A DNA stretch of 64,000 bases, taken from NCBI GenBank assembly GCA_965219085.1, contig OZ244720.1, positions 707,684 to 771,683 of the forward strand, read 5' to 3'. Origin of the DNA: Dehalococcoidia bacterium. GTDB lineage: Bacteria > Chloroflexota > Dehalococcoidia > UBA2979. Each line of letters starts with the position of its first letter. Position 1 is the stretch's first letter. Of this stretch, positions 13,995 through 64,000 are shown one piece after another. Made by a program: the position numbers and the translations under genes. The notes beneath the pieces were generated by a model that worked only from the letters and a program-made list of their open reading frames with translations, was not told the origin of the DNA and did no database searches.

Positions 13995-14115
13995 GGTTCC
14001 GTTCCTTTCGTCCTGTAGGGTTTGGCGAGCCGCGCGATGCGGCTTGTGACAGAGCGAGGCCCCGTCCCACGCGGGTGGTGGGGCGGGGCCTCGTGGTGCC
14101 GCTCGGAGTGAGCGG

Positions 14116-15811: not shown

Positions 15812-15873
15812 GGGCTGTCTCCTTCCGTACGTATCTGGTTGGTGGATTGCGCGGGCGAGCGCCCGCGTCTGCG

Positions 15874-16904: not shown

Positions 16905-17023
16905 GGTCGGGTTCTCCTTCGTGGTTGATGGTGTCCGTGATGGATGCGGCGAGGCCGCCCCCTGAGGGAGCGGCCCCGTGTGCGCCCGCGTGTCGGCGGG
17001 CGGCGTCTGTGTGCCGTGGGTGG

Positions 17024-17422: not shown

Positions 17423-17568
17423 GTTCAGTCTCCTTCTGGTGATGGTTGTCACCGTGGCGGTGCGGCCTCGCCGCACCTGGTTCGAAACGACGGCGGGGCC
17501 GCCCCCGTCAGGGAGCGGCCCCGTGTGCGCCCGCGCGCGGCGGGCGGCGTCTGTGTGCCGGTGGTTGG

Positions 17569-17961: not shown

Positions 17962-18154
17962 TTCAGATTCTCCTTTTGGTGTTGGTTGTCACCGTGGTGG
18001 TGCGGCCTCGCCGCACCTGGGTTCGAAACGACGGCGGGGCCGCCCCGAAGGACGGCCCCGTGTGCGCTCCCGGAAGGGAGCGTCTCTGCAGCGCGTGTGC
18101 TCCAGGCACCTGCGATGGGCACCTCCTTCCGTTTGCTTGTTGGCCTTCAGGCGC

Positions 18155-18873: not shown

Positions 18874-19076
18874 TGTGTCGCTCTCCTTCGTGCTGTGCAT
18901 GGCTGGATGGACTGGTTGCGGGCCTCCCCAGGGGGAGACCCGTGCGCGGGGCGGAGCCCCGTCGGTCAGCGGTCATCGCGCCTCCTTCCGGTTGGCGGTT
19001 GGCCGGCGGGCACACGGAAGCGGCCCGGCCCCTTCGGGGAGCCGGGCAGTCAATGCCCGTCGGTGGGATGGGTTGG

Positions 19077-20123: not shown

Positions 20124-20587
20124 CACGAGCTGCCCTTCGCCAGGGGCCGCAGTCCCCGCAGGCTGCGCCGCGAGACGACCTTGCCGGAGTGCCAGCGCAT
20201 CCCGAGGACGGCCAGCACCTCCAGTGCCCCGCCGGGCTGCGGGGCGAGCACCGCCGCTCGCCCGGTGGCGGGGCTGTAGACGACCGCCTCGCGCCCCGCG
20301 AAGCGCCGCCGTGTGACATCGAGCCATTCGGCGTACGCCCAGCGCGCCTCCTGCTCCGTGACCCTCTTCAGGTCCGCGCCGGCGAGCACCGCGAGCGCCC
20401 CGTCGAGGTCGCCCTGCCGCCTCAACCGCCGCGCCTCGTGGACGCTGCGGGCGATGCTCGGTTCGGGTTCCGGCGACGCTCCGAGGAGCGCCTCGAAGAC
20501 CCGGTCCACCAGCTCTTCGAGGCTGCGGCCGGGGCGGTCTCCCGCCACCTCCGCAGCCGTGTTCAGCGTTCCCGTTGCCATCGTCAT
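20123..20587 (-). CDS. Hypothetical protein of about 153 aa
   Basis: ATG at 20587 is preceded by AGGAGGA. It is translationally coupled to the primase gene. Confidence 0.5.
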   Translation of the reverse strand: MTMATGTLNTAAEVAGDRPGRSLEELVDRVFEALLGASPEPEPSIARSVHEARRLRRQGDLDGALAVLAGADLKRVTEQEARWAYAEWLDVTRRRFAGREAVVYSPATGRAAVLAPQPGGALEVLAVLGMRWHSGKVVSRRSLRGLRPLAKGSS

Positions 20588-20711
20588 TTCGTGTCCTCCT
20601 GTGGTGTGGTTCCTGGTGCCGGGTCGTGCGCCCTCGCGGGCATGAAGAGGGCCGCCTCCAAAGAGGCGGCCCCATGGCTGGGTGGATACGGTGGGCCGGA
20701 GCCCAGGGTCG

Positions 20712-21215
20712 CTAGCGCCGGACCACCCTCGTGCGGCGGCGGCCGGCAAGCAGCCGTGCGACGAAGATCGCCCCGGCACCGAGCCCGGCCGCGTTGAGCA
20801 CGGCCAGTTCACCGCCGTGGCCGAACAGCAACGGCGCCGCGAGCAGCGCCACCAACCCGACGACCACCGCGGGCTTCCGCCCACGCCTCGTTGGGCGAAC
20901 TGCGGGAGCCTCGGGCATCAGCTCGTAGGCCGTCCAGATGGGCAGCCCGATGACGCCCTCGACCGCGGTGACGGCGTGGGCGCGCGTGCAGCCGCCGGTG
21001 TGGCAGCGCACATCGATGCCGTTGCCGTCGGGCCGCTGCCGGAACGCCAGCCCGTCCGACGCGCCGCCGTGGCAGATGGCGGTAGTCGTCCAGAACCAGC
21101 CCCGCTCGAAGCTCACCCGCTGCGGGATGAGGTTCGCGATGCGGCCGGCGCTCGGTCCTGTGTACTGCTGCGCCGTGGCTCGCATCTCCATGGCGTCCCT
21201 CTGCTCTGTGTTCAT
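20712..21215 (-). CDS. Hypothetical protein with a Cys/His zinc-finger-like N-terminus and a C-terminal transmembrane helix
   Basis: ATG at 21215 is preceded by GAAGGAGG. It has CHGG...CHTGGC and a hydrophobic C-terminal segment. It is the first gene of the minus-strand operon. Confidence 0.55.
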   Translation of the reverse strand: MNTEQRDAMEMRATAQQYTGPSAGRIANLIPQRVSFERGWFWTTTAICHGGASDGLAFRQRPDGNGIDVRCHTGGCTRAHAVTAVEGVIGLPIWTAYELMPEAPAVRPTRRGRKPAVVVGLVALLAAPLLFGHGGELAVLNAAGLGAGAIFVARLLAGRRRTRVVRR

Positions 21216-21790
21216 GTCTCGTGACCTCCTTCGTCACTGCTGCGTTGCTGGTGACCCGTGTCGGCATCCGTGGCTCGGGTAATGGCTGGGTTGTCGCTGC
21301 ACGCACTCCGCCCACGGTCGGATGCCGGACCGGGGAACGGGGTGGCTGGGCCGCGCTCGTGCGAAGCGGCCGGCCTGCGAATCACTCGCGGACGGGCTCG
21401 GTGCAGGGGCGGCGGACGTGAGGAACGGGCCGAGCGCAGGACGCACTCCGCCCAGAGACTCCGGGGCCGAGTGCAGGATGCAACTCGCCCGCGGTCTCCC
21501 GGCGTTCGAGGCAACGTCGGGGGAGCAGCGCTCGACCCTTCTGCTGCCTCCCGCTGCGGGAAGGCGGTTGTCCCTCACTGGATCGCCGTCGGGAGAGCAG
21601 GGCTCTATCCGTCGGGTCGGTCCGGGTCCGGGATGGACCCTCCAGGTTTCTACGGCAGGAAACGCTGGCAAAGCCGGAAACTGCTTGGCAGTGTCGCCTA
21701 GTCCCCGCACCGATGGAAGGGGGTTTGGGCCTCCCGCGCCGAATCACTTGCTGCGATGTAGCTGCGATGTAGCGGGGGCCGACCGGGGCC
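21216..21790 (-). promoter_or_regulatory. 575-bp leader and promoter region of the minus-strand establishment operon, with internal repeats
   Basis: It is noncoding. The 13-mer cgcactccgccca occurs twice (about 21300 and 21440). A tandem ctgcgatgtag x2 sits at 21751-21772. Confidence 0.4.
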
Positions 21791-33835: not shown

Positions 33836-34291
33836 CTACGCGACCGCCCGACCCGCCTCCAGGCGCTCTGCGCAGGTGGGACACACGGCGGTACTGGGCT
33901 CCCCGGCCGCCGGCAGCAGGTGATGCAGCAGCCCCAGCTCGAGGGCGAGATTGAACAGCGCGACCAAGTGCCCCTGGTCCGGTCTCGTGCCCGACCGCCA
34001 GCGCCGCACGCAGCGGGCGTTCAGGCGCAGCCGCCGCGCAAGCCCCCGCCACGACAGCCCGGCCGCCTGCAGGAAGCGCTCCAGCCGCTGCGGGAAGTCC
34101 GGCGGGAAGGGCGATGGCTCCACATGGTAGACCCACTGCTGTTGCCGACCCACGTTCACGCCGTCCCACCGCCGGAGCCAGCCGCCTCGGCATCGAGAAC
34201 GGCCAGCGTCAGCCGCATCATGGTGCACATGCCGCCTTCCGTCAGGCCCGGCCGCGGGGCCGCCTCCTCCAGCCGCTCCTCGAACGCGCAC
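33836..34291 (-). CDS. Small HTH protein, paralog of the 34419-34721 gene; start uncertain
   Basis: The HTH is FPQRLERFLQAAGLSWRGLARRLRLNARCVRRWRSG, similar to the neighbouring gene. A true start near 34132 (VYHVEPSPFPP) is possible. Confidence 0.4.
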   Translation of the reverse strand: MRVRGAAGGGGPAAGPDGRRHVHHDAADAGRSRCRGGWLRRWDGVNVGRQQQWVYHVEPSPFPPDFPQRLERFLQAAGLSWRGLARRLRLNARCVRRWRSGTRPDQGHLVALFNLALELGLLHHLLPAAGEPSTAVCPTCAERLEAGRAVA

Positions 34292-34418
34292 AGCTCGATC
34301 GCGAACTCGTCGGGCGAAGCGTCAGCGAGCTCGTCCATTCGCCGCACCCACGCACCAAGTTCCTCCGGGAAGGGCGGCGCGCGGAAGTCCGCGCTCCGAT
34401 CTCGACGTTCCACGGTTC

Positions 34419-34721
34419 CTATCTCCCCCGTCGGTATACGACGGTCACGTCCTCGCCCGTCAGGGCCGCGAGGCCCCCGGGCACGCGCATCGCCAGCCGC
34501 ACCAGCGAGAGCATCGCCCCGCCGTTGGGGGCCGCCCCCTGACGCCAGCGCAGCAGCTGGCGGCTGTCCACCCCCAGCGCCACGGCCAGCCCCTCCCAGG
34601 AGAGCCCTGTCAGCTCCTTCAGCGCCGTCAGCCGCTCGACGAAGTCCTCGGGGACCAGGGCGACGCCCGGCGGAAACGACGCGACGGCCGCGGGACCTCC
34701 GCTAGACATCGGTCCGCTCAA
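34419..34721 (-). CDS. Small HTH protein of 100 aa
   Basis: The HTH is FVERLTALKELTGLSWEGLAVALGVDSRQLLRWRQG. Confidence 0.5.
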   Translation of the reverse strand: MSGPMSSGGPAAVASFPPGVALVPEDFVERLTALKELTGLSWEGLAVALGVDSRQLLRWRQGAAPNGGAMLSLVRLAMRVPGGLAALTGEDVTVVYRRGR

Positions 34722-34944
34722 GGAAGAACAGTTCGTCGAACTCGGCGATCCCGAGCTCCGCCATGAGGCGCGCCCGCACCTTCGCCGAGGGGCTCCGCCT
34801 GCCGCTCATCAGCTGCGACAGGTAGCCAGGGTTGATGCCGACGCGCCGCGCCAACTCGGTCTGGGTCATGTTGTGGCGGGCGAGGTGCTCCCACACGACC
34901 TCGGGCCTGAGCCTCACCCGCAGCGACGGCTGCCTGCGCTTCAT
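34702..34944 (-). CDS. XRE-family HTH transcriptional regulator of 80 aa
   Basis: ATG at 34944. The HTH is MTQTELARRVGINPGYLSQLMSGRRSPS. Confidence 0.65.
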   Translation of the reverse strand: MKRRQPSLRVRLRPEVVWEHLARHNMTQTELARRVGINPGYLSQLMSGRRSPSAKVRARLMAELGIAEFDELFFLERTDV

Positions 34945-35421
34945 GCCGCGTCGTCCCTCCGCGGCGGCTCGCTGCCGGCTCGAGTGTCGCAGCCGGACGT
35001 GGGCGGTTGCCCCGCCGCGCCGTCTCCGTAACCGTCGGGGTGGGCGAGGGCGTGGCGCGCGATGATGCGGGCCAGTGCCCGCAGGCCCTCGAGGCGCATT
35101 CGCTCCTGTTCGTCGGTCAGCCGCTGCTTCGTACTCACGCTTGGGTCCCACTGAACAACTCGCTGCCGGCACCGCGCGGGGTGACAGGCTTGTGAACCAC
35201 GGGTGTACACTCGGATAGTACATCCGTTCGTTTCACGAGAGATTAGCGATTCTCGGGCGCCGAGGCAACAGTTCTGTGACCGATCCGGCCTTTTTGCAAG
35301 GAATTGCTTGCTCCGATGTCACAACGATGTAGCTGGGACGCGGCAGGCGACCTCGATCACGCTAAGGTGAACACGCAGATGAGGAGAAGGAGGCGAGGCT
35401 AACGCATCGCGGGACCCTGGA

Positions 35422-43571: not shown

Positions 43572-44754
43572 CTAGACCGTATGGAGTGACCGGCTCCGAG
43601 TTCGCAAACTCGCGGGTTACAGACGCGAGGCATGCAGAGCCGCATGCGAAAGGAGCCGGTCAGGAAGATGACTACCACATACGCAGGGATGGATGCACAC
43701 GCGCGGGCGATCCACGTGGCGGTGCTGGCGCCGGGGGCCGAGCGGCCCGAGGAGTGGCAGCTGGCGAACGAGCCGAAGGCGGTGAAGCGGCTCGCGCAGC
43801 GCCTGCGGCGCATGGCGCCGGGGCCGCTCGTGGCCTGCTACGAGGCCGGGCCGGGCGGCTTCGCGCTGCAGCGCCGGCTGGAGGCCGAGGGCGTCGAATG
43901 CCGGGTGATCGCCCCGGCGCTGATCCCCAGGCGACCCGGCGACCGCGTCAAGACCGACCGTCGCGACGCACGGAAGCTCGCCGAGCTGCTGCGCGCGGAC
44001 CTGCTCACGGCGGTGCATCCCCCGACCATCGACCAGGAGGCGGTGCGCGACCTCTGCCGGGCGCGCGAGGACGCCGTGACCGACCGCACGCGGGCGCGCC
44101 ACCGCCTGGCGAAGCTGCTGCTGCGGCGCGGCATCGCCTACGACGGGCGGAACTGGACGCTGCGGCACCGCCGCTGGCTGCTGACGCTGCGCTTCGAACA
44201 CCCGGCCGCGCAGGCCACCTTCGACGACTACCTGCGCGCGCTCGAGGGCGTGGAGGAGCGGCTGCGCACGCTGGAGCAGGAACTGGCCGCGTGTGCCGCC
44301 AGCGACGACTACCGCGAGGCGGTGGGGCTGCTGCGCTGCTTCCGCGGGGTCGACACGGTGACGGCGATGACGGTGCTGGCCGAACTCGGCGACGTCACGC
44401 GCTTCGGCAGCGCCCGGCAGCTGATGTCCTACCTCGGGCTGACGCCGAGCGAGCACAGCAGCGGGGCGCGCCAGCGGCGGGGGCCGATCACGAAGACAGG
44501 GAACAGCCACGTGCGCCGCATCCTGGTGGAGAGCGCCTGGCACTACCGCCACCCGCCGCGGGTCGGCGCAGCCCTGCGCAAGCGGCGGGAGGGCCAGCCG
44601 GGCTGGGCCGTGGTGCTGGCCGACCGGGCGCAGACCCGGCTCTATCGCCGCCACCGGCGGCTGGCCGCTCACGGCAAGCCGTCGGTCGTGGCGAACACCG
44701 CCGTCGCCCGCGAACTTGCGGGCTACCTGTGGGCGGTGCTGCGGCGTATCCCCG
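43572..44754 (+). mobile_element. IS110-family insertion sequence, copy 1 (about 1183 bp)
   Basis: Boundaries are defined by identity to the inverted copy at 49010-50194. It has no obvious terminal inverted repeats. Confidence 0.75.
43668..44754 (+). CDS. IS110-family transposase (DEDD); the ORF reads through the insertion-sequence end into flanking DNA
   Basis: It has MTTTYAGMDAHARAIHVAVL and the C-terminal motif YLGLTPSEHSSG. Confidence 0.75.
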
Positions 44755-44913
44755 CCGGCCTCGACCTCCCGAACCATCTCCAGCCGGGCAGCCGGTGTCA
44801 GACGCGCGTTAGGATGTGCCACGAGAGGCTCCTCTCCTGCTCCTGGTGCGTTCGTGACACACACAGCAGCAGGCGGAGCCCCTCACCTGCAACAACCTAC
44901 GTGGGAACTACAC

Positions 44914-47568: not shown

Positions 47569-48638
47569 TGTAGTTCCCACGTAGGTTGTTGACACCTGCA
47601 GGGCGTCTTGAACCCTGCAGGGGTTGCTCGTGAAGGGAGCCTCCGGGAGAAGGTGTGAGTAACAAGCCAGCACCTTGCACCTGGAGGCTCCGATGCATCG
47701 TAACGCCCGACTGACCTTCCTCGCCCGCCGCACGATGGTGGAACGCATCGCCGCGGGCCGCGCGGTCGCGCACGTCGCCGCCGAGATGGGCGTCTCCCGT
47801 CCGACCGCCTACAAGTGGTGGCGACGCTGGCTGGAGGAGGGCGAGGCCGGTCTCGAGGACCGCCCCAGCCGCCCGCGACGCTCCCCGGCGCGTGTCCCGG
47901 CACGGCTGGAGCGCGCGATCGAGCGCCTGCGCCGCCGCGAGAAGCTCGGTCCGGCACGCATCGGCTTCCGCCTCGGGATGCACGCCTCCACCGTCCACCG
48001 CGTGCTGTGCCGCCGCGGCCTCAACCGCCTCGCCTGGCTCGACCGCCCGAGCGGGCAGCGGATCCGCCGCCCCCGGCGCTACGAGCATGCCCGCCCGGGC
48101 GACCTGCTGCACATCGACGTCAAGAAGCTGGGGCGCATGCCCCCGGGCGGCGGCTGGCGCGCCCACGGACGGGGCCAGGCGCCGCGCAGCCGCGCCGGCT
48201 ACGCCTTCATCCACTCCGCCGTGGACGACCACACGCGCCTCGCCTACAGCGAGATCCTCGCGGACGAGCGCGCCGTCAGCGCAGCCGCCTTCCTGCAGCG
48301 GGCGTGGGCCTGGTTCGCCGAGCTCGGCATCGAGGTGCGGGCCGTGCTCACCGATAATGGCGGCGCCTACAAGAGCCGCCTGTTCAGCTCCGCCTGCCGC
48401 CTCAGCGGCGGGCGGGCGAAGCGGACCCGGCCCTACCGCCCGCAAACCAACGGCAAGGTCGAGCGCTTCCACCGCACGCTGCTCGAGGAGTGGGCCTACG
48501 TCCGCGTCTACCGCAGCGAGGCCGAACGCGCAGCCGCCCTCGGACCTTCGCTGCACCGCTACAATCATCACCGTTGCCACACCGCGATCGGAGGTGAACC
48601 CCCGATCAGCCGTGTCAACAACGTCCCGGGACACTACA
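47569..48638 (+). mobile_element. IS481-family insertion sequence (about 1070 bp)
   Basis: Imperfect terminal inverted repeats of about 28 bp are tgtagttcccacgtaggttgttgacac on the left and the reverse complement of gtgtcaacaacgtcccgggacactaca on the right. Confidence 0.7.
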
Positions 48639-48643
48639 CCTGA
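47693..48643 (+). CDS. IS481-family DDE transposase
   Basis: It has an MHRNARLT-type N-terminal HTH and an rve-type DDE core (LLHIDVKKLG...DNGGAY...NGKVERF). Confidence 0.8.
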   Translation: MHRNARLTFLARRTMVERIAAGRAVAHVAAEMGVSRPTAYKWWRRWLEEGEAGLEDRPSRPRRSPARVPARLERAIERLRRREKLGPARIGFRLGMHASTVHRVLCRRGLNRLAWLDRPSGQRIRRPRRYEHARPGDLLHIDVKKLGRMPPGGGWRAHGRGQAPRSRAGYAFIHSAVDDHTRLAYSEILADERAVSAAAFLQRAWAWFAELGIEVRAVLTDNGGAYKSRLFSSACRLSGGRAKRTRPYRPQTNGKVERFHRTLLEEWAYVRVYRSEAERAAALGPSLHRYNHHRCHTAIGGEPPISRVNNVPGHYT

Positions 48644-48960: not shown

Positions 48961-50097
48961 TCAGGCCGCCGCCTGCTCCCGGGCGCCGGCCTTCGGCTCT
49001 CCCGCGGATGCGGGGATACGCCGCAGCACCGCCCACAGGTAGCCCGCAAGTTCGCGGGCGACGGCGGTGTTCGCCACGACCGACGGCTTGCCGTGAGCGG
49101 CCAGCCGCCGGTGGCGGCGATAGAGCCGGGTCTGCGCCCGGTCGGCCAGCACCACGGCCCAGCCCGGCTGGCCCTCCCGCCGCTTGCGCAGGGCTGCGCC
49201 GACCCGCGGCGGGTGGCGGTAGTGCCAGGCGCTCTCCACCAGGATGCGGCGCACGTGGCTGTTCCCTGTCTTCGTGATCGGCCCCCGCCGCTGGCGCGCC
49301 CCGCTGCTGTGCTCGCTCGGCGTCAGCCCGAGGTAGGACATCAGCTGCCGGGCGCTGCCGAAGCGCGTGACGTCGCCGAGTTCGGCCAGCACCGTCATCG
49401 CCGTCACCGTGTCGACCCCGCGGAAGCAGCGCAGCAGCCCCACCGCCTCGCGGTAGTCGTCGCTGGCGGCACACGCGGCCAGTTCCTGCTCCAGCGTGCG
49501 CAGCCGCTCCTCCACGCCCTCGAGCGCGCGCAGGTAGTCGTCGAAGGTGGCCTGCGCGGCCGGGTGTTCGAAGCGCAGCGTCAGCAGCCAGCGGCGGTGC
49601 CGCAGCGTCCAGTTCCGCCCGTCGTAGGCGATGCCGCGCCGCAGCAGCAGCTTCGCCAGGCGGTGGCGCGCCCGCGTGCGGTCGGTCACGGCGTCCTCGC
49701 GCGCCCGGCAGAGGTCGCGCACCGCCTCCTGGTCGATGGTCGGGGGATGCACCGCCGTGAGCAGGTCCGCGCGCAGCAGCTCGGCGAGCTTCCGTGCGTC
49801 GCGACGGTCGGTCTTGACGCGGTCGCCGGGTCGCCTGGGGATCAGCGCCGGGGCGATCACCCGGCATTCGACGCCCTCGGCCTCCAGCCGGCGCTGCAGC
49901 GCGAAGCCGCCCGGCCCGGCCTCGTAGCAGGCCACGAGCGGCCCCGGCGCCATGCGCCGCAGGCGCTGCGCGAGCCGCTTCACCGCCTTCGGCTCGTTCG
50001 CCAGCTGCCACTCCTCGGGCCGCTCGGCCCCCGGCGCCAGCACCGCCACGTGGATCGCCCGCGCGTGTGCATCCATCCCTGCGTATGTGGTAGTCAT
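48961..50097 (-). CDS. IS110-family transposase, copy 2; its C-terminus is supplied by flanking DNA
   Basis: The protein is identical to copy 1 up to ...YLWAVLRRIP. Confidence 0.75.
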   Translation of the reverse strand: MTTTYAGMDAHARAIHVAVLAPGAERPEEWQLANEPKAVKRLAQRLRRMAPGPLVACYEAGPGGFALQRRLEAEGVECRVIAPALIPRRPGDRVKTDRRDARKLAELLRADLLTAVHPPTIDQEAVRDLCRAREDAVTDRTRARHRLAKLLLRRGIAYDGRNWTLRHRRWLLTLRFEHPAAQATFDDYLRALEGVEERLRTLEQELAACAASDDYREAVGLLRCFRGVDTVTAMTVLAELGDVTRFGSARQLMSYLGLTPSEHSSGARQRRGPITKTGNSHVRRILVESAWHYRHPPRVGAALRKRREGQPGWAVVLADRAQTRLYRRHRRLAAHGKPSVVANTAVARELAGYLWAVLRRIPASAGEPKAGAREQAAA

Positions 50098-50194
50098 CTT
50101 CCTGACCGGCTCCTTTCGCATGCGGCTCTGCATGCCTCGCGTCTGTAACCCGCGAGTTTGCGAACTCGGAGCCGGTCACTCCATACGGTCTAGG
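49010..50194 (-). mobile_element. IS110-family insertion sequence, copy 2, identical to copy 1 and inverted
   Basis: Nucleotide identity to 43572-44754. Its left end directly abuts the IS5 inverted repeat at 50195. Confidence 0.75.
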
Positions 50195-51374
50195 GATGGT
50201 CTGAACAACTCGCCTGAGCGGGTGAGCAGATGCGATCATGGGGCGACCCGGAGAGGGGCGGCCCATGCAGCAGCGTTCGTTCGGCAGCGTCGAGTACGAG
50301 CACAAGAAGGTCAAGACGAGGCGGCAGGCGTTCCTCGAGCGCATGGACGGGCTCGTCCCCTGGGCTGAGCTGGAGCAGCGCATCGCGCCCGTCTACCCGA
50401 AGCGCGGCCGCGGACGCCGCCCCTACGCGCTGCGCGTGATGCTGCGCATCCACTGCCTGCAGCTCTGGTTCAACCTCAGCGACCCCGGCATGGAGCAGGA
50501 ACTCTACGACTCCCGCTCGATGCTCGAGTTCGCCGGTCTCAGCCTCTCCGAGCCGATCCCCGATGAGACGACGATCCTCAACTTCCGCCACCTGCTGGAG
50601 CGCCATCAGCTGGGAACGGCGCTGTTCGCGACGATCAACGCGCACCTGGCACGGCAGGGGCTGCAGGTGTGCGAGGGCACGATCGTGGACTCCACGATCA
50701 TCAGCGCGCCGTCATCGACGAAGAACCGCGAGCGTGCGCGCGACCCCGAGATGCACCAGACCAGCAAGGGCCGGCAGTGGTACTTCGGGATGAAGCTGCA
50801 CGCCGGCACGGATGCGCGGACGGGGCTGGTCCACAGCGTGAGCACGACGGCGGCGAACGTCTCAGACGTGACCGAGGCGCATCGCCTCTTGCACGGCGGC
50901 GAGACGGAGGCGTGGGGCGATGCCGGCTACCAGGGAGTGGAGAAGCGCCCGGAGCACGCGGGGTCGGAGGTGAGCTGGCAGGTGGCGATGCGTCCGGGTC
51001 TCAGGCGGCAGCTGGCGCCGGGGGGCGAGGAGGCGCAGGCGGAGCGGCGCAAGGCCTCGGTGCGCGCCAAGGCTGAGCATCCGTTTCTCTACGTGAAGCG
51101 GCACTTCGGGTACGCGCAGGTCCGCTACCGGGGTCTTGAGAAGAACCGCCAGCGTCTCATGCTGCTGCTCGGTTTCACGAACCTGTTGCGAGCCGAGCCT
51201 CAGCTCGCCTGATCGCGGGAGCGCTGCGTCCGGAATCGCTCCCGCAGGCGAGCCCGCAGCGGAGTGGGAACGGGATCGCCCCCTGAACCGCGGCATCGGC
51301 CCCCGCAGCGCGGCTCGGCACGCCGATCGGCCCGCACCGCGCCCGATACGCCACCTGTTCAGACCTTCCCTAGG
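50195..51374 (+). mobile_element. IS5-family insertion sequence (about 1180 bp)
   Basis: Terminal inverted repeats are GGATGGTCTGAACA on the left and the reverse complement GGAAGGTCTGAACA on the right. Confidence 0.7.
50265..51212 (+). CDS. IS5-family DDE transposase
   Basis: It has the DDE_Tnp_1 motifs DSTIISAPSSTKN and GDAGYQGV...YRGLEKN. Confidence 0.8.
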   Translation: MQQRSFGSVEYEHKKVKTRRQAFLERMDGLVPWAELEQRIAPVYPKRGRGRRPYALRVMLRIHCLQLWFNLSDPGMEQELYDSRSMLEFAGLSLSEPIPDETTILNFRHLLERHQLGTALFATINAHLARQGLQVCEGTIVDSTIISAPSSTKNRERARDPEMHQTSKGRQWYFGMKLHAGTDARTGLVHSVSTTAANVSDVTEAHRLLHGGETEAWGDAGYQGVEKRPEHAGSEVSWQVAMRPGLRRQLAPGGEEAQAERRKASVRAKAEHPFLYVKRHFGYAQVRYRGLEKNRQRLMLLLGFTNLLRAEPQLA

Positions 51375-51516
51375 TCATCGACGGGCTGGACACAGCAGCC
51401 CATGCTGCCATCGCAGCAGCGCCGACATGGCGACGCGGGCGTGCAAAAGGGGTCTTCCCGGTTCTACGTAATGCTCTCGTCCTGAGGCCCCCCGAGCGGG
51501 GGCCAGGGATCAGTCC

Positions 51517-51880
51517 TTGGGGGCTCCCGCAGCCACGCCGGAATGTCTCGCACCGCATGCGCCGCTGGTGGCCCAGAGCAACGGACCGCCCTGGGTGGAC
51601 CCATTCGGGGACGACGACCGCCAGACGTGGGCGGAGTGCCTGCGCGGCGAGGTCGCCGAGGGCTTCAGCCGCGTCGTCTTCGAGGGGGCAGCGTCGACGA
51701 CCTCGTGGCCTGCTCGGAGCGCCTGCAGGTGACGGCCCTCTACGCCCTGCACGACGGCGGGTGGGTCTCCTGCATCCTCGGCGCGCCGGAGTGGGTGAAC
51801 GCCGAGTTCCGGGAGTTGTTCGCCGAGGGCGTTCCCTCGATCACGCCGCTCGTCGTCAGGAGTGAGGGGCCTCCGGAAGC
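51517..51880 (+). pseudogene. Orphan, frameshifted 3' fragment encoding the adhesin C-terminal Cys domain; it begins right at the IS5 right end
   Basis: QTWAECLRGEVAEGFSRVVFEGA, then after a frameshift VDDLVACSERLQVTALYALHDGGWVSCILGAPEWVNAEFRELFAEGVPSITPLV, match the domains at 10681-11224. Confidence 0.6.
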
Positions 51881-53856: not shown

Positions 53857-54533
53857 GTTCTCCCCGGGATGCACACGAGAGCAGGGAGCATCTAGCTGGT
53901 CCAAGCAGTGCACCCCTGCCTGCAAATCTCGCTGACGCGGGTTGAGTCCACAAGAGCAGGCGTACCTGTCTCAGTCGCAGAAGGGCACTCCCTCAGAGCA
54001 AACAAACTTGCCTCCTCATTGTGTCGCTCGGCACTTACCAGTAGCTCGAGCGATCTTCACGATCGACCGGACACGGAGTGGATCGTTTCGTCCAACCAGC
54101 CGGACCAGGGGTAGGCGCGCGGACACCCCAGACCGTGCGTGGAAGGCATTCAGATGGCGCTCGGCAGACCAGTCGATGCACCTGTAGGCGCGGGCGGAAC
54201 GCCGGCCCCGGCCGTCGTTGCGCCGCTCGGTGTGGCCACCGTGCACGTCGAAGCACTGACCCCCTTTTTATGTCATCTATTCGTCGGCTGTCAATGACGC
54301 CTGCTGCGTCCGATCCCGCCAGGCCGCACCTCGGCACCGCGCCTGCTGGAGTAGTGCGCCATGGCCTCTAGCCGACAGGCCGCCGCTCGCGCCGTCCGGA
54401 ACGTCCCCCTGACGTGGGCCCGTCGCACCGTCCCATCTCGCTGGTGCTGGCTGCGCTCGCCTTCACATGCATGCTGTCGGGCACCCGCACGAGTTCGCTG
54501 ACGGCCTGAGGCTACAGCTGGTAGGTCAGCGGC

Positions 54534-57500
54534 ATGGGTGAGCTGAGCGAGGACACGTTCAGCTGGGGGGACCAGACGATCGAGGTGAAGCCGGTGTTGC
54601 TGCAGTCCGGCCACCTGCTGCTGAGCGTAGCGCCGGAGCCGGCCGACGGGTTCGTGCTCGACATGGACGGAACGGGGTTTGCCTCGGCCGACGCCACGTT
54701 GCGCCGGAATGACACGTTGATTGGGTACCTCTGGACGGCCCCGGACCTGAGCTGGGCGAAGGACGACACGGTCGCGCTGCGCCTGAGCTGGGTGGAGGCG
54801 GAGGAGGACCCCGCGTCGGCGCAGGAAGTGGTGACGGTGGTGAAGGATGCGACGGCGACACCCACACCGACACCCACGCCGACCCCCACACCCACGCCAA
54901 CGCCCACGGCCCCGCCGGCCCGGCCCACGGGACTCTCCGCCACGGCCTCCCCTGGCGCGATCGCGCTGAGCTGGGATGACCCGTCCGACGCGACCATCAC
55001 GCACTACGAGGTGTTCCGGCGGGACACCACGATCCACGCGCTCGGGGAGTTCATCACGCTCGAGGCGAACACGGGCTCGGCGGCCACCACCTACACGGAA
55101 GTGAGCGTGGAGCCAGAGCGCAAGTACGTGTACCGGGTGAAGGCCGTGAACGCCCACAGCGCCAGCCAGTGGTCGAGCTTCGCCAGCGCCACCACCCCGC
55201 CCGCGCCCGTCCCGCCTGCCACCGAGGACCTGGCCGCAGCCGGCCTCACCGCCACGCTTCCCGAAGGCGGCGGCGTGGCCCTGAGCTGGACCGCTCCGGT
55301 GGAGGACGCCGATAGCGTCACCGGCTACGAGGTCCTGCGCGCGGTGGGCAACGGGGAGCTGACCACCCTGGTCTCCGACACCGGGAACACAGCCACCAGC
55401 TACACCGACGCGACCGCGACCGCGACCGCGACCGCGACCGAGGCGGGCGAGACCTATGCCTCCCAGGTGAAGGCGATCCGGGGCGAGGAGCGCAGTCAGC
55501 CATCGGGCGAGGCCCAGGTGCAGGTCCCCCACGCCGCCGCCGACCTCGCCCCCAGCGGGCTGACCGCCACGCTGGTCGAAGGCGGCGGCATGAGCCTGAG
55601 CTGGACCGCGCCGGCGGAGGACGCCGCCAGCGTCAGCGGCTACGAGATCCTGCGCGCCGTGGGCGACGGAGCGCTGACCACGGTGGTGTCCGACACCGGG
55701 AACACGGCCACCGCCTACACGGACGCCACCGCGACCGAGGGGGGCCAGACCTACACCTACGAGGTGAAGGCGATCCGGGGCGAGGAGCGCAGCCAGGCCT
55801 CGGGCGAGGCCCGGGTCCAGGTCCCCCATGACGCCGTTGACCGCGCCCCCAGCGGTCTGACCGCCACGCTTGTCGAAGGCGGCGGCGTGAGCCTGACATG
55901 GGCCGCCCCGGCGGAGGACGCCGACAGCGTCAGCAGCTACGAGATCCTGCGCGCCGTGGGCGACGGCGAGCCGGCCACGCTCGTGGCCGACACCAGTTCC
56001 ACGGCTAGCACGTACGCCGACGCCACGGCGACCGAGGCGGGGGAGACCTACGCCTACCGTGTGAAGGCCATCCGGGACGAGGACCGCAGCGGGGCGTCCG
56101 GCGAGGCCCAGGTCCAGATCCCCCATGCCGCCGTTGACCGCGCCCCCAGCGGCCTCGTCGCCACGCTGGTCGAAGGCGGCGGGGTGAGCCTGAGCTGGAC
56201 GGCCCCGGCGGAGGACGCCGACAGCGTGACCGGCTACGAGATCCTGCGCGCTAAGGGCCAAGGCGGGCTGGCCACGCTGGTCGCCGACACCCAGTCCACG
56301 TGACCACCCATACGGACGCTGCGGTTACGGAGGCCGGCGAGTCCTACACCTACGAGGTCAAGGCCATCCACGGCACCGAGAAGAGCGACGCCTCCAACCA
56401 GGCCGTGGTGGCCGTGCCACAGGCCGCCGAAGATCTGGCTCCCTCCAACCTGACAGCCGCGGTTGCCGAAGGCGGCGGCGTGACTCTGAGCTGGACCGCC
56501 CCTGCGCAGGACGCCGACGGCGTCAGCGGCTACGAGATCCTGCGCGCCGTGGGCGGGGGAGAGCTGACCACCCTCGTGTCCGACACCGAGTCCACCGACG
56601 CGACCTACACCGACGTCACCGCGACCGGGGCGGGCGAGACCTACGCCTACCAGGTGAAGGCCGTCCGCGGCGAGGACCGCAGCGAGCCCTCGGCCGAAGC
56701 TTCGGTCGCCCTGCTCGCGGCCGCCGTCGCGGCGTGCGAGTTCGATGCCGAGGGCGGTGATCTGCCCGCGGACAGGAGCACGGCCTGCACGCTCGAGGTC
56801 GGCGGTTCCGTGCGCGGCGAGCGCGGAGCGGCCAGCGATGTCGACTGGGTCCGGGTCGACCTGCAAGCCCTCGCCACCTACCAGTTCGACATGCGCGGCA
56901 AGTCGACCGGCTCCTGGCAGCTGGTCGACGGCGTGCCCGCCTTCGTCTCCGTGGGCACACTGGAGGATCCAAAGCTGCTGGGCATCTACGACGCCAGCGG
57001 CGCCCTGGTCGCGGGCACGGACTCGGAGGTGGCGGGCACGGGCAAGGACAGCCGCATCGCGTCGTTCAGTCCCGCCGCCGACGGCGTCTATTACATCTCC
57101 GCCTCGGCCGAGGGCGCCTGGACGGGAACCTACGAACTCTCGCTGACGGTGACGGCCGGCACGCACGTGGCGGATCTGGCGTTGCTCGCCCCGACCGGCC
57201 TGACCGCCACCATTGCCGACGGCGGCGGATACACGCTGACGTGGACGGCCCCCGCGGAGGCGGCCGATTCGGTCACCGGCTACGAGATCCTGCGCGCCGT
57301 CGGCGAGGGAGCGCTGAGGACCCTCGTCGCCGACACCCGGTCTACGGCGACCGCCTACACGGACGCGACCGCCAGTCAACCGGGGACGAGCTACGCCTAC
57401 CGCGCGATCGCCCTGCGCGACGGGGTGAAGAGCCAGCAGTCCAACGAGGCATCGGTCGACCTGCCGGTACGCGGCGGCGTGACGCTGACCTGCCCCGCGA

Positions 57501-58345
57501 CCGACACCGATTGCAGCGGGACGGGACCGGCGGACCTGGCGGTCACGAAGACGGCCGCCGGGCTGCGGCTGAGCTGGAACCCGCCGCCGGAACCGACGCT
57601 GACCGGCGCCGAGACGACGGTGCTGCAGTACCAGATCATGCGCTCGCCGGGCGATGACGACTACGGCCTCATGACCCGCGTCGACGCCGATGCGCGCAGC
57701 TACCTCGACACCACGGCGCGGCGCGGCCAGTACCGCTGCCAGGTGCGCGCGATCTATTTCGTGAACGAGGCCTGCGCCTCGCTGCGTGACATCGATGTGG
57801 ACCTGATGATCGGCGGGACCGAGTACGAGCCGGTCGACGGGCTGAGGTCGGACGGCACGACGCTGTGGGCCAGCGACCGTAGCAGGGCCGCCATTCTTGC
57901 GTTCAGGCTGTCAGACGGCGTCCGCGACGGTAGCAGGGACATCATCGCCGAGGACAACTCAGACCCCCGTGGTCTGTGGGGGCGCGAGGGCACGCTCTGG
58001 GCGCTGACCGAGTCCGGGTCCGGGAGCACGAAGATCACGCTGGATGGCTACTCCCTCACCGACGGGACATTCGGTAACCGCACGGCGCGGCTCACGCTGG
58101 GGCCCAAGGCGGACACCACCGGTGCGCCGACATCGGGATACGGACTGTGGGCGGACGAGGACACCTTCTGGATATCGGAGGTGCCGTCCTCGTCCCTCTT
58201 CGCCTACGACTGGGCCGACAGCGGGACGCTGGCCAGGAACCCGGGGAAGGAGCTGAGCCCGAGCATATCGTACGCCAGCCTCTCCACATCGATGTGGGGC
58301 GATGGGACGACGATGTGGATGGCCACCTCGCTCTCCGGGTCTTGA
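54534..58345 (+). CDS. Second giant surface protein (FN3 repeats plus NHL-like propeller). It is frameshifted at about 56295-56303 and 3'-truncated by the IS5 fragment
   Basis: There are eight or more FN3 units (LSWTAPAEDADSVTGYEILRA...YRVKAIRGE). The repeat unit continues across the TGA at 56301 in the +1 frame. Propeller blades run 57800-58345 and the ORF ends inside the IS5-derived sequence. Confidence 0.6.
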
Positions 58346-58578
58346 GAAGAACCGCTAGCGTCTCATGCTGCTGCTCGGCTTCACGAACCTGTTGCGAGCC
58401 GAGCCTCAGCTCGCCTGATCGCGGGAGCGCTGCGTCCGAAATCGCTCCCGCAGGCGAGCCCGCAGCGGAATGGGAACGGGATCGCCCCCTGAACCGCGGC
58501 ATCGGCCCCCGCAGCGCGGCTCGGGACGCCGATCGGCCCGCACCGCGCCCGATACGCCACCTGTTCAGACCTTCCCTA
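58342..58578 (+). mobile_element. Orphan 3'-terminal fragment (about 237 bp) of the IS5-family element
   Basis: It is about 97% identical to 51139-51375 and ends in the same right inverted repeat (cacctgttcagaccttccc). Confidence 0.8.
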
Positions 58579-58579
58579 A

Positions 58580-58900
58580 CGTACGCGGGGGCGAGCGTCG
58601 CCGCGGGGAGCTTCGCCGCCGCAACCGCGCTCGACACGACGTGGACGGCGCCGGCGGCGACCACCGCCGATCAAGAGATCACGCTGACGCTGACAGTGAC
58701 CGACGACAGCAGCCCCACCAACAGCGCGGCGAGCACGGTGGTCGTGATCGTCAGGCCGGATCGGGCGCCGCTGGTGGAGGTCAGTCCAACGGCGGCGATC
58801 GTCGCCGGCGTCGCCCCCGAGGTGAGCCTGGAGGCGACGGTCACGGACCACGAGACCGACAGCGACGACCTGACTTACTTAAGCCCTGATCCACCGAAGA
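58580..58900 (+). pseudogene. Fragment of an Ig-like or cadherin-like surface-protein gene
   Basis: It encodes TWTAPAATTADQEITLTLTVTDDSSPTNSAASTVVVIVRPDRAPLVEVSP... with no start codon. It is flanked by insertion-sequence fragments. Confidence 0.3.
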
Positions 58901-58993
58901 AGAGCGCGCGAGGGGCTGCGGTTGGGTGCTCCGCTGTAGCTGGGACAATGGGTTTTGAGAATTCACGTCACAGCCACAGGGAGCACCCATTCG

Positions 58994-60305
58994 ATGCTAG
59001 CAGCGAGTAACCCCGAGCGGATAGACATCGCCTCAGGCGACGACCGCCTCGTGGACCACGCGGGCCTGCTGCTCCCCGCCACGCTCGCTGGCCGGCTCGG
59101 CCTCCGTGCACTGGCGGACGCCCACCTCGACCTCGGTGACGCAGCGGGGCGCGCGAACGCCGGCGACAAGCTGCTGACCCTGGTCGCCTCGGCGCTCGCG
59201 GGCGGCGACTGCATCGACGACGCCGCTGCGTTGCGCGCCGGCGGGACGGCGAGCGTGCTGGCTTGCACGGTCAAGGCGCCGTCCACCCTGGGCACGTTCT
59301 TGCGCAGCTTCCGCTGGGGCCACGTCCGCCAGCTCGACCGCGTCAGCCGCGCATTGCTCGCCCGCGCATGGGCGGCCGGGGCGGGACCCGGCGCGGCGCC
59401 GTTCACGATCGACCTCGACTCGACGATCTGTGAGACCTACGGCCTGGCGAAGGAGGGCGCCCGCCACCACGGCTACACGGGCGTGCACGGCTACCACCCG
59501 CTGCTCGCCGTTGCGGCCGGGACGGGTGACGTGCTGATGGCGCGACTGCGCGAGGGCCGCGCCAACACCGCCCGCGGCGCCGCCCACTTCCTGCGTGAGA
59601 CGGTGGCGCGGGTCCGCGACGCCGGGGCGAGCGGGCAGCTCACGGTGCGCGCCGACAGCGGCTCCTACAACCACGCGGTCGTCGCCGTCTGCCGCAAGCA
59701 GGATGTCCGCTTCTCGGTCACGATCCGCCAGCAGCCGAGCGTGCGTAGGCTGATCGAGGCGATACCGCAAGCGGACTGGACGCCGATCCCGTACTGGCTG
59801 CCGGGCGGCGCCGATGTCGCCGAGACGACCTACACGCCGTTCCAGCACACGGGGGACGCCAGCGCGGTCCGGCTCATCGTGCGGCGCGTCAAGCCGGCGC
59901 CCGGCTCACAGCTCGTACAGCTACCACGCCTTCATCAGCGACCGCGCGGGGGAGATGATGGAGCTCGAGGCGGACCATCGCCGTCACGCCGAGGTCGAGA
60001 ACGCGATCCGCGACCTCAAGTACGGCGTCGGGCTCAACCATCTCCCCTCGGGCCGCTTCGCCGCGAACGCGGCGTGGCTCGCGGTGCAGGTGATCGCGCA
60101 CAACCTCGCCCGCTGGACGGCACGGCTCGGGCTCGGCGAGGGAATCGTCACCACCAGGACGCTCAGGCGGCGCTATTTCGCCCTCGCCGGACGGCTCACC
60201 CACTCGGCACGGCGCTGGACCCTGCACCTCCCCAGGCGCTGGCCCTGGGCCGGTCAGCTGGCAGCCGCGCTCGCGCGACTACGGGCGATACCGCTCCCGG
60301 CCTGA
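58994..60305 (+). pseudogene. IS1380-family transposase with an internal frameshift or deletion
   Basis: The N-terminal part ends ...VRLIVRRVKPAPGSQL. The C-terminal part (YSYHAFISDRAG...HAEVENAIRDLKYGVGLNHLPSG) continues in a different frame from about 59900. Confidence 0.6.
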
Positions 60306-60387
60306 CGCCCGCTCACAGCGCCGGCCCGGGTCCGAGGCTCGCGCCAGCATGCCCGCGCACGCCTCGCGCTCCCCAGCTCCCGCGCCC

Positions 60388-61200
60388 TCAGCGCCCCCGA
60401 GCTACGCTGAGCGACGGCTCATGGCTCCGGCCGGCGAACACCGACACACCTGCCGAACTCTCCGGCATACCGGCATCCCGCCCCCTCAAGCCTCGATCGG
60501 TGTATTCGGGCTTAGCAGCACAGCTCCAGCAGCGCGCTCGACCGGCGTCGCGAGGCGAGTGGCATCCGCGCACGCGGCGGCCAGCGCCGAGGCGCGGGCG
60601 CCCGCTCCGCGCTCCGGCACGCGCAGCCGGTCGGCCCTGACGACCATCTCCGCGAGGTAGGTCCGCGTGTAGGCCGCGCCCGAGGCCTCGGAGTCGCCCA
60701 TCGTCATCTCGAGGAAACCCCTGAGCGTCGTCCTGAGCGACTGGGGCGCGCCGATGCACCGCAGGTAGTCGCCGAAGGTCTCCTCCCCGTCGAGCTCCGC
60801 GAGGCGGCTCCCGCTGGCGAAACCGAGGGACTGCCGCTCGGCGAACAGCCCCCGGAACAGCCGGGCGGCGGGCCGGGGCGCACGGCGTGAGAGCAGGCCC
60901 AACGCCCGCTGCCGGGAGGTTGCGGAGCAGGTTGGCCGGGGAGAGGCGGGGCGTCATCGTCACCCAGCGGCCGCCGCGGTACCAGCCGAGCCGCATCTTC
61001 GACGGAAGGAGCGGCAGACCGAGTTCGCCGCAGATGCGGAAGGCGACATCGTAGGAGGAGCAGAAGAAGTCGGCGCCGGTGTCGATGGAGAAGCCGTGCA
61101 CCTCGTCGCTGCGGAGGCGCCCGCCCACTCGGTCGCCAGCCTCGAGCAGGAGCACTTCGAGACCGCGCCGCCTGAGGGTGTAGGCGGCGGCCAGCCCACA
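60388..61200 (-). pseudogene. FAD-dependent amine-oxidase-like oxidoreductase, N-terminally truncated and frameshifted
   Basis: The FAD-binding beta-alpha-beta remnant is GLAAAYTLRRRGLEVLLLEAGDRVGGR. The downstream frame changes at about 60900. Confidence 0.5.
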
Positions 61201-61262
61201 TACAGCGAGTGTATCTGCGAGCGGGTATCAATCTATACGACCTCTCGACCGACTGCCCCCTG

Positions 61263-62948
61263 CTATTCCCTATCCTTCAGGAAGTCTGACAGGCCGTCCA
61301 TAGTGATCGTGGCCCGGCCGCCAGTTGCATGATAGAAATTGCTGGCTCCCTGGAGCAACATGTGGTCACGATCACCTGGGTGGCTTTGCCAGGATACGTC
61401 GTAGCTCAAGCGGTCCAATATCGCGGGGGTCGCCGAATAATCCGTACCGACCAGCAAGACTACTGCAGCGCGAAAGTCCTTCTGAGCCTTGGAAGTCTCG
61501 GGAACTCGTGGCCCATGCTCAGCGATGATGTCATCAATCGTATACGCCTCGAACCCACTGGCGGTGAACACACGATACCCATTGTCATCCTCAATGACAT
61601 TGCCTTCCTCGCCCCACAGCCATTCGCCGTTCACCGCAATTCGGAAGTCCGGGACGTCCTCTGGAGGTATGAGGCCCGCCAGATACAACTCTATGGGGCA
61701 GTACACGTAGAGACTTGGGCTGAATTCGTGTGAATACCTCCCGTCACCGAGATCTATCATCGTGGAAATGTTATACCCGTCCAGAATGCAGTGGTCGTTG
61801 ATGAATCCCCAATGTGGATAGGGTGGCACGACGAAGTTCGCCCACCGATGCATTAACTCGTGGAGAAGAACACCATTGACAAAGTCTCCCCCCCAACTGT
61901 AATCGTAAGTATTAATGTAGATCACACCCTGAAGCTCTTTCGCGGACTCCCATCTCTGGCCTTCGGCGAAAATCAGCTGCCCAACTCCCTTTACATCGTT
62001 CTTTACCCCAACGTAGTAGGCACCGTGAGGAACACCCGGCTCAAGCCGGTCACTGGTCAAGTTGGCCACAAATACTAGAAAATCGAACTCATCGTTGAAG
62101 TATTCATAGAAACGTGCTGCGTATTCTGTCAACGGCACATCACGTCCACCATAGGCGAGGTCTTCCTCGACGGGTAGGACGAACACATTGTCGTTGTATA
62201 TCTGCGGGCCTGCAACAGCGATAGACGGAGGGACGGGCGTGGGCGTGGGCGTAGGGACGGGTGTGGGCGTTGCAGCAGGGACGGGCGTGGCCGTGGGCGT
62301 AGGGACGGGTGTGGGCGTTGCAGCAGGGACGGGCGTGGCCGTGGGCGTCAGCGTTGGTTCTGGCGTGGGAGTTGCGGTCGGGCGTGCCGTGGGCGTAGGG
62401 ACGGGTGTAGGCGTTGCAGCAGGGACGGGCGTGGCCGTGGGCGTCAGCGTTGGTTCTGGCGTGGGAGTTGCGGTCGGGCGTGCCGTGGGCGTAGGGACGG
62501 GTGTAGGCGTTGCAGCAGGGACGGGCGTGGCCGTGGAGGTCGGGACAGCGGTGGGCCTTGCAGTAGGTACGGGCGTGGCCGTGGGCGTCAGCGTTGGTTC
62601 TGGCGTGGGAGTTGCGGTCGGAGTGGCGGTCGGCGCGGTCGGTGTCGGGGTCGGCGTGTCGGTCGGGATGGGCGTAGGAGTCGGCGTTGCCGTAGATGCA
62701 GCGGTCGGTGTGTCGATTGGTGAGGGCGTGGGGGTCGCCGTTGCGGTCGGTGTCGGTTCGCGGGTAGTCGCCTCGGTGGGCGTCACAAGGGGGGCTGACG
62801 CTTCCTCCGACTCGGACCTACAGGCGACAGCGACGAGCACGAGCAAGACGCCCACCAGACCAGGGACGGAACGTACCGCTAGAGTTCGTAGCGGCGAACT
62901 CCCCGGGCGGGGGCGTGGCTTCGCCAGTTGTATCTTCGCCCCAAGCAT
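61263..62948 (-). CDS. Secreted lipoprotein: a Pro/Thr-rich linker followed by a putative HExxH zinc-metallopeptidase domain
   Basis: The signal and lipobox are [13 protein letters not shown]. The P/T-rich linker spans about 170 aa. The C-terminal domain has LLHELMHRW. The 3' 900 bp are about 50% GC against about 70% in the flanks. Confidence 0.6.
62190..62700. repeat. Imperfect tandem nucleotide repeats encoding the Pro/Thr-rich linker
   Basis: Units of the form gggacgggcgtggccgtgggcgtagggacgggtgtgggcgttgcagcag repeat. Confidence 0.8.
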
Positions 62949-62968
62949 TCGACGGGCCTGTTGGCTCC

Positions 62969-64000
62969 TCATCCCTCGACCTTTGGATTAGGTGGGTTAG
63001 CTTGGTCATAATTGCTGCTGCCCCAGCATCCGACGGCGCCGTCGGTCCTCACCCCGCAGGTGTGGAGCCACCCGGCGCTGACCGAAGTGAACTCCCCCGG
63101 CGGTGGCGTGGCTTGACCAACAACATTGCCGCCGAAATCATCATTGGAGCCCCAGCATTCGACGGCGCCGTCGGTCCTCACCCCGCAGCTGTGGAGCGCC
63201 CCGGCGCTGACCGAGGCGAACTCCCTCGGCGGTGGAGTGGCCTGGCCAACAACATTGCCGTCCTCATCCTCGTTTAACCCCCAGCATTGGACGGAGCCGT
63301 CGATGCTTACCCCGCAGGTGTGGAACCACCCGGCGCTGACCGAGGCGAACTCCCCGGACGGCGGCGTGGCCTGACCAACTACATTGCCGTCATCATCCTC
63401 GTTGAGTCCCCAGCATTCGACGGCGCCGTCGGTCCTCACGCCGCAGGTGTGGAGCGCCCCGGCGCTGACCGAGGCGAACTCCCCGGACGGCGGCGTGGCC
63501 TGGCCAGCAACATTGCCGTCCGGATCCTCGTTGAATCCCCAGCATTCGACGGAGCCGTCGATGCTTACCCCGCAGGTGTGGAACGCCCCGGCGCTGACCG
63601 AGGCGAAGGAACCTCCGGGCGGCGTGGCTTGACCATCCTCGTTTAACCCCCAGCATTCGACGGCGCCGTCGGTCCTCACCCCGCAGGTGTGGGCGGCCCC
63701 GGCGCTGACCGAGGCGAACTCCCCGGACGGCGGCGTGGCTTGACCATCCTTGTTGAATCCCCAGCACTCGACGGCGCCGTCGATACTTACCCCGCAGGTG
63801 TGGAACACCCCGGCGCTGACCGAGATGAACTCCGCTTGCGCCGCTCTGGCATCTCTTCGCGGAGCCGTCAGCCCGCGGGCCTGTTTACCCCAGCATTCGA
63901 CGGAGCCGTCGGTCCTCACACCGCAGGTGTGTCTGTCCCCCGCGCTGACCGAGGCGAACTCCCCGGACGGCGGCGTGGCATACACGCTGGACCCCCAGCA
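62969..64000 (-). CDS. RCC1-repeat (beta-propeller) protein, 5'-partial; the start lies beyond the window
   Basis: It has six or more repeats of [32 protein letters not shown]. Confidence 0.7.

Follow-up and report, generated by a model that had tools for sequence, protein, structure and literature searches.

A 64,000-nucleotide stretch of a Dehalococcoidia bacterium genome (contig OZ244720.1, positions 707,684 to 771,683; hereafter the window, to which all coordinates refer unless another sequence is named) carries two genes for giant surface proteins, here called gene 1 (35-11227) and gene 2 (54420-58336). We consider it probable that gene 2 is the dead remnant of a gene for a large FN3-repeat surface (adhesin-like) protein, lying in a decaying region dense in insertion sequences (ISs). 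At least four independent lesions were found in it: two nonsense codons, both substitutions, a 1-nt deletion and a 3' truncation. Relative to intact homologues the reading frame of gene 2 is disrupted, as in a pseudogene, and judging from its sequence the functional product has presumably been lost. IS-associated decay of this kind is well known (e.g. PMC11708052), and the locus is an ordinary case of it.

Two open reading frames form a single gene with a one-nucleotide deletion

A preliminary description, drawn from the DNA letters alone, had read the open reading frames (ORFs) at 54534-56303 and 56300-58345 as one gene interrupted by an indel, and this view was borne out. The first ORF (54534..56303, plus strand) encodes the rest of the first domain, a Pro-Thr linker and FN3 units (seven FN3 stretches, 2.6e-52), and stops at a TGA at 56301 that is produced by a frameshift. 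The gene-derived part of the second (56300..58336, plus strand; the ORF runs to 58345) lies in frame 2, against frame 0 for the first, and encodes, in order, FN3 units, a pre-peptidase-like domain, more FN3 units and four W-x-DG-x-x-W blades. When five consecutive 297-nt FN3 units were aligned, their lengths were equal except for a single gap column in the fourth unit, which reads TCCAC-GTG where the sister units have TCCACGGC or AACACGGC. Once repaired at this site (56299..56300, plus strand), the fourth unit reads LVADTQSTVTTHTDAAVTEAGESYTYEVKAI and has 99 residues, the same as its neighbours. Given the G+C content of the window (about 70%), the GC at third codon positions (GC3) marks the true reading frames, and the GC3 plot showed a frame switch at about 56300 with the coding signal unbroken. 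Because the alignment of the units shows one gap column and the frame switches without loss of signal, we conclude that a single FN3-repeat gene, with a 1-nt deletion, underlies the two ORFs. The second ORF is in the -1/+2 frame with respect to the first, and not +1 as had been described.

There is no homopolymer of three or more bases at the missing base, the sequence around it (CAG TCC ACG TGA) contains no slippery heptamer of the form X XXY YYZ, and no short tandem repeat was detected at the site by Tandem Repeats Finder, which reported the 297-nt FN3 array and in-frame 6-nt linker repeats elsewhere and nothing more. The RNA downstream of the frameshift folds no better than shuffled sequences (z 0.48). 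With neither homopolymer, tandem repeat, slippery heptamer nor unusual RNA structure, the site thus gives no support for programmed frameshifting or phase variation: it has the features neither of a programmed -1 ribosomal frameshift site nor of a phase-variable contingency gene, in which a homopolymer or a short tandem repeat would be present.

In-frame stop codons interrupt the first domain of gene 2

The first ~84 residues of the gene 2 ORF resemble a domain of about 125 residues that closes L001b, one of the related proteins described below, and that is also found inside L001b, L002a and gene 1. In a tblastn search with the terminal domain of L001b, positions 54420-54785 were aligned (E 8e-12) through two in-frame stop codons, a TGA (54507-54509) and a TAG (54522-54524). 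A profile of four intact copies of the domain matched 54471-54788 (envelope from 54447; E 9e-12), again through both stops, and located the conserved start of the domain, 'TVG...GY...G.L...F', upstream of the ATG at 54534. The upstream part of the domain (54420..54533, plus strand) is severed from the ORF by the two stops, which had escaped the preliminary description. Since they sit inside the first domain, the gene did not originally start at the ATG at 54534, which lies in mid-domain, and the present ORF has neither a signal peptide nor a signal/transmembrane (TM) segment. The segment HRPISLVLAALAFTCML upstream of the ATG was first taken as a signal peptide; the profile alignment suggests that the first strand of the domain makes up at least part of it.

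The domain, with the pattern 'TVG...GY...G.L...F...W...W..G..V.l.l', recurs inside or at the end of giant proteins and has no match in Pfam or NCBIfam. Copies lie at 54447-54788 and 3089-3472 of the window, at 12035-12475 and 13835-14218 of L001, and at 5975-6343 of L002.

Relatives of gene 2 continue beyond its present end

Gene 2 resembles a group of giant multi-domain FN3/cadherin/PKD surface proteins from uncultured bacteria (L001-L004 and P0002-P0151). Its FN3 units are 55-59% identical to those of the L001-L003 genes, and it shares with the group the pre-peptidase-like domain, the W-x-DG-x-x-W blades and the 'TVG...GY' domain. Whereas the intact relatives have a signal/TM start, a length of 1345-4097 residues and complete propellers, gene 2 has no usable start, is frameshifted and is cut in the middle of a blade. 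A genome scan returned only relatives of 55-80% identity, in metagenome-assembled genomes (MAGs), and a metagenome scan gave no match.

The genes with FN3 units and a pre-peptidase domain in L001 (OY763410.1), L002 (CBDCPE010000002.1), L003 (OZ240617.1) and L004 (OZ253555.1) often occur as tandem pairs. They are 55-59% identical to gene 2, rising to 80% over a short stretch in L004, and their host MAGs are labelled Dehalococcoidia (Chloroflexota) and Ca. Aldehydirespiratoraceae (Acidimicrobiia), that is, two phyla.

Had homologous genes naturally ended where gene 2 does, its 3' end would have called for no rearrangement, as the preliminary description had pointed out; the homologues run on past that point. 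In gene 1 a cadherin-like domain and two terminal domains come after the five blades. Among 5.8 billion proteins P0001 was the sole relative of the gene 2 blades to be found (34% identity); it has five blades plus another domain of ~120 residues. In L002a the blades are followed by LRR and FN3 domains. In every alignment the subject extends beyond the stopping point of gene 2. Because gene 1, P0001, L002a and the proteins with the C-terminal cassette described below all continue past that point, the comparison indicates that gene 2 does not end naturally here. It does end, as had been noted, inside a propeller blade, the fourth recognisable one; whether this was the last blade is uncertain, since in the alignments its counterpart is blade 5 in P0001 but the fourth of five blades in cassette-type propellers.

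Gene 2 is joined to an internal position of an IS5-family element

The window contains one intact IS5-family element (50194..51369, plus strand; 1176 bp), flanked by CTAG on both sides (50190-50193 and 51370-51373). Its ends read GGATGGTCTGAACA at 50194 and GGAAGGTCTGAACA, on the reverse strand, at 51369, and the terminal pattern occurs three times in the window (50194, 51369 and 58575) against 0.35 expected by chance. We take its terminal inverted repeats, GGAAGGT/GGATGGT, to be similar to the GGAAGGTGCGAA ends of E. coli IS5. The transposase, of 324 residues, matches the Pfam models DDE_Tnp_1 (1.8e-27) and DUF772 (9.7e-20) and scores 331 bits, against a cutoff of 140 bits, on NCBIfam NF033581, covering profile positions 1-284 of 285. 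With a DDE transposase, terminal inverted repeats and a 4-bp Py-T-A-Pu duplication, the intact copy has the features of the IS5 family; a single DDE transposase, a size of ~1.2 kb and the 4-bp duplication, here CTAG, are those of the IS5 group, typified by E. coli IS5. With a transposase no more than 55-58% identical to annotated ones of the IS5 family, the element represents an unnamed member. Target duplications of IS5 have the form Py-T-A-Pu, CTAG being the commonest and CTAA another known target (PMC5493358).

A second, partial copy follows gene 2 directly. This relic (58337..58575, plus strand; 239 bp) corresponds to IS positions 938-1176, has the right inverted repeat only and is followed by CTAA. 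The segment 58337-58578 matches 51131-51372 with 97.9% identity over 242 bp (E 1e-117), the five substitutions including a change of CAG to TAG in the residual transposase frame. Unlike members of the IS5 group, the relic is reduced to a right end and, with no left inverted repeat, cannot transpose. An orphan right end had been recognised before, as a fragment of 237 bp from 58342; the IS-derived part is slightly longer and begins five bases earlier. The stop codon of the adhesin ORF (58343-58345) is supplied by the relic.

Gene 2 is cut in mid-blade, after MWGDGTTMWMATS, and is joined to the IS at internal position 938 of 1176, not at a terminus. A joint made by the transposase would sit at the IS terminus, and two recombining ISs would yield a full-length hybrid, so that neither process accounts for this junction; neither joints at IS termini nor hybrid ISs with exchanged flanks were found. 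Moreover, the two IS5 sequences are direct repeats, 7 kb apart, and the interval between them has been kept. Recombination between them would delete the gene relic next to the intact IS5 (the tail relic, below), the two-component genes and gene 2, yet all are still present. With differences at 5 of 242 positions, the relic is also older than any recent exchange with the intact copy. The junction of gene 2 with the IS5 relic is, to judge from its structure, a deletion scar. Classical transposase-mediated adjacent deletions start at the terminus of a whole IS. Here, by contrast, the break falls within the IS, and this points to an ordinary illegitimate deletion, one end of which fell in an IS by chance. 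The situation resembles the IS-associated deletions and IS remnants of other bacterial genomes, such as the adjacent deletions and IS-IS recombination of the E. coli long-term evolution experiment (PMC11708052), in that a gene is truncated beside an IS, several IS families lie nearby, and the flanks of a neighbouring IS, the IS1380-like element described below, are unrelated truncated genes.

The target sequence CTAA to the right of the relic (58576-58579) opens a fragment of a giant surface-protein gene, a PKD-like repeat (58576..58879, plus strand) whose right side is truncated by the IS1380-like element. The fragment has a plus-strand coding signal in the GC3 plot and a weak match to REJ, and is 45-53% identical to units of P0073, P0002, P0057 and P0096. 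These units have the form 'LTYAW...TWTAPAAT.ADQ.ITLTLTVTDD' and occur in cassette-bearing giants; comparison of the fragment with the relatives of gene 2 gave no significant match.

The simplest course of events would begin with a normal insertion of IS5 at the CTAA inside the PKD-like repeat of a downstream giant-protein gene, or possibly in the distal part of gene 2. A later deletion by illegitimate recombination, reaching from blade 4 into the body of the IS, would have removed the left 937 bp of the IS, the 3' end of gene 2 and anything between them. The relic would then have gathered its five substitutions.

The gene relic beside the intact IS5 is not a demonstrable part of gene 2

A relic of a cassette-type giant-protein gene (the tail relic; 51536..51875, plus strand) lies to the right of the intact IS5. 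It comprises the last residues of the first copy of a terminal domain, a linker and the second copy, is ~77% identical in nucleotide sequence to gene 1 at 10882-11224, and has a 1-nt deletion of its own at 51686/51687. The domain it encodes has the CLRG...GFSLVVYEGG...LYAL...YILGAP...F motifs of the terminal ~90-residue domain. A C-terminal fragment had been described as starting right after the IS5, at 51375; the relic is real, and its homology starts 163 bp beyond the IS5 flank. The 162 bp in between (51374..51535) have no coding signal and no detectable homology. A continuation of the IS110-family element or of the first terminal-domain copy was considered for these 162 bp and rejected, as no similarity was found.

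The tail relic had been thought to match gene 2. At the amino acid level it is 62-68% identical to the last domain of many proteins, including P0018, P0008 and P0002. It is not complementary to the break in gene 2: the remaining propeller, the cadherin-like domain and most of the first terminal-domain copy have no counterpart. Nor does gene 2 show the lead-in, blades or cadherin-like domain of the cassette; its blades share 26-34% identity with those of the cassette and come directly after an FN3 unit, the poly-G/DFEW lead-in being absent. Since the tail relic is generic and the gene 2 blades are divergent and lack this lead-in, nothing ties the one to the other. We found no evidence that the tail relic is the missing tail of gene 2; from its composition it is an independently decayed 3' end of a gene of the poly-G/five-blade/cadherin-like/two-terminal-domain class. 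The intact IS5, in turn, looks like a separate, bystander insertion, because its CTAG flanks match and its left end abuts the IS110-family element.

Alternative accounts of the locus

The preliminary description had proposed an IS5-mediated rearrangement that separated the gene from its tail and moved one or the other. On this view, recombination or transposition involving the two IS5 sequences would have left the body at 54.5-58.3 kb and brought the C-terminal tail to the intact IS5 at 51.4 kb. Both gene pieces do adjoin IS5 right ends on the same strand, the tail module follows blades of the W-x-DG type in other proteins, and some proteins with FN3 units like those of gene 2 (e.g. P0047) end in the tail module. 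However, the joint between body and IS is internal to the IS, recombination between directly repeated copies deletes the intervening DNA and does not relocate it, and CTAG stands on both sides of the intact IS5, whose left neighbour is IS110 and not gene 2. In addition, the tail homology stands apart from the IS and leaves most of what gene 2 has lost without a counterpart; the tail is as close to many unrelated proteins as noted above, whereas the gene 2 blades reach at most 34% identity to any relative and lack the poly-G/DFEW lead-in; and the two IS5 sequences have diverged. We therefore regard such a split as improbable.

An artefact of assembly or sequencing, in which the frameshift would be an indel error in the consensus, the junction a chimeric join through the repeated IS, or both, seems no more probable. 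The relatives stem from MAG assemblies, and the window may have the same kind of origin; the frame breaks are concentrated in 51.4-61.2 kb, where four (in the tail relic, gene 2, the IS1380-like transposase and an oxidoreductase relic) fall within 10 kb. Against this, the missing base does not lie in a run of three or more identical bases, and at the two 5' lesions the stop codons arose by substitution and not by an indel. The relic differs at five private positions from the one other IS5 copy of the window, so that the join was not made through that copy, and the join lies outside the sequence that the two share. The highly repetitive gene 1, 11.2 kb long, is uninterrupted, as are many other long ORFs in the window, among them those at 25-41 kb. 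Because at least four lesions are present, two of them substitutions, and other long ORFs are intact, sequencing error is unlikely. A functional arrangement in which a truncated protein is still made, through programmed ribosomal frameshifting or phase variation, is the least credible account and very improbable: coding-type GC3 is still strong in both halves of the gene, so that decay is not ancient, but besides the absence of the expected signals at CAG TCC ACG TGA the upstream nonsense codons remove any secretion signal and the propeller is cut in mid-blade.

Several points weigh against the decay of gene 2 through a deletion ending in an IS5 inserted elsewhere. Across the relic, gene 2 and the PKD-like fragment share a reading frame, a coincidence with a chance of 1 in 3, so that the IS5 may instead have inserted into gene 2 itself. 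The matching CTAG flanks of the intact copy are weak evidence of a simple insertion, CTAG being the commonest IS5 target. Exact-protein look-ups for the second ORF of gene 2, the IS5 transposase and the response regulator gave no match. The order of events and the content of the deleted DNA we infer and did not observe, and the assembled consensus is the sole source for the apparent single-base deletion and for the junctions.

In annotation, 54420-58336 should appear as one pseudogene and not as two ORFs, and 58337-58575 as what remains of an IS5; the relics at 51536-51875 and 58576-58879 should each be entered as a gene remnant in its own right. The locus shows a genome in which ISs of several families are active, among them identical IS110 copies and an intact IS5, and in which some large surface-protein genes are being lost and others kept.

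Insertion sequences around gene 2

The region of gene 2 is unusually dense in ISs: two IS110 copies, an IS481, the intact IS5, the IS5 relic and a broken IS1380-like element, thus ISs of several different families, are packed within 17 kb. The IS110-family copies (43572-44755, plus strand, and 49010-50193, minus strand) are inverted and 100% identical over 1184 bp, and the second abuts the left end of the IS5. They flank 4.25 kb with a malic-enzyme gene, a tRNA-Glu gene and an IS481-family element, whose transposase lies at 47675-48640. The shared 1184 bp include only ~60 nt upstream of the transposase gene, and the copies diverge just past the transposase core, at about residue 374 of 390; little non-coding sequence that could hold a guide (bridge) RNA is common to both, and one of the two may have lost part of its 3' end. 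Rfam and tRNA scans gave no match in the region of interest.

The IS1380-like element (58880..60514, plus strand; 1635 bp) has imperfect terminal inverted repeats of 18 bp. Its transposase is split between frames at about 59880, with profile positions 9-266 and 320-433 in different frames. To its right lies a truncated, frame-broken relic of an amine-oxidase/FAD oxidoreductase gene (60515..61227, minus strand). Its flanks are unrelated truncated genes on opposite strands, the PKD-like fragment and this relic, and the element marks another IS-associated rearrangement scar.

A widespread C-terminal cassette

The more interesting by-product of the locus, and a separate topic, is a widespread unannotated C-terminal cassette. 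It consists of a poly-G stretch, DFEW, five W-x-DG-x-x-W blades, a cadherin-like domain and two terminal domains of ~90 residues; gene 1 carries it at its C-terminus (9700-11224). A profile of the terminal domain matched at least 600 cluster representatives, 154 with values below 1e-30. Almost all carry the domain in duplicate at the very C-terminus; these proteins have 1-5 thousand residues, and their passengers are very diverse (cadherin, FN3, PKD-like, S8 peptidase and LRR). No Pfam or NCBIfam model for the terminal domain was found, and its structure as predicted from a two-sequence alignment had a pLDDT of 51. The cassette may be an uncharacterised module for export or anchoring.

The last 516 residues of gene 1 are 92% identical to those of P0002 (4097 residues, encoded on a 3.3-Mb contig), and the N-terminal passengers differ: many cadherin-like units in gene 1, and LRR, Calx-like and PKD-like arrays in P0002. 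This suggests that the cassette is conserved or exchanged independently of its passenger. The relics beside an intact cassette gene could conceivably be the debris of ongoing module shuffling, with ISs giving the breakpoints and the cassette swapped among passengers. The similar cassettes and different passengers of gene 1 and P0002 are compatible with this but do not distinguish exchange from simple decay, and we think it improbable.

Other features of the window

A mobile-element-like module of small overlapping genes (11712-21233, minus strand) encodes a methylase and an SNF2-type helicase, a RadC-like protein, two SSB proteins and a CHC2/Toprim primase-like protein, and is probably an integrated element. 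Its SSB genes are tandemly duplicated (16947-17530 and 17491-18067; 91% nucleotide identity). Four successive small genes at 33836-35232 (minus strand) resemble helix-turn-helix regulators and are paralogues of one another. Abutting minus-strand ORF pieces at 15-21 kb and 33.8-35 kb had raised the suspicion of general assembly indel noise; their translations proved to be those of separate small overlapping genes.

At the right end of the window (61263-63985, minus strand) lie a gene for an RCC1-repeat protein (eight RCC1_2 stretches) and an adjoining ORF of 569 residues with no Pfam match. Tandem DNA repeats occur within the regions of these two at 62229-62621 and 63020-63979.

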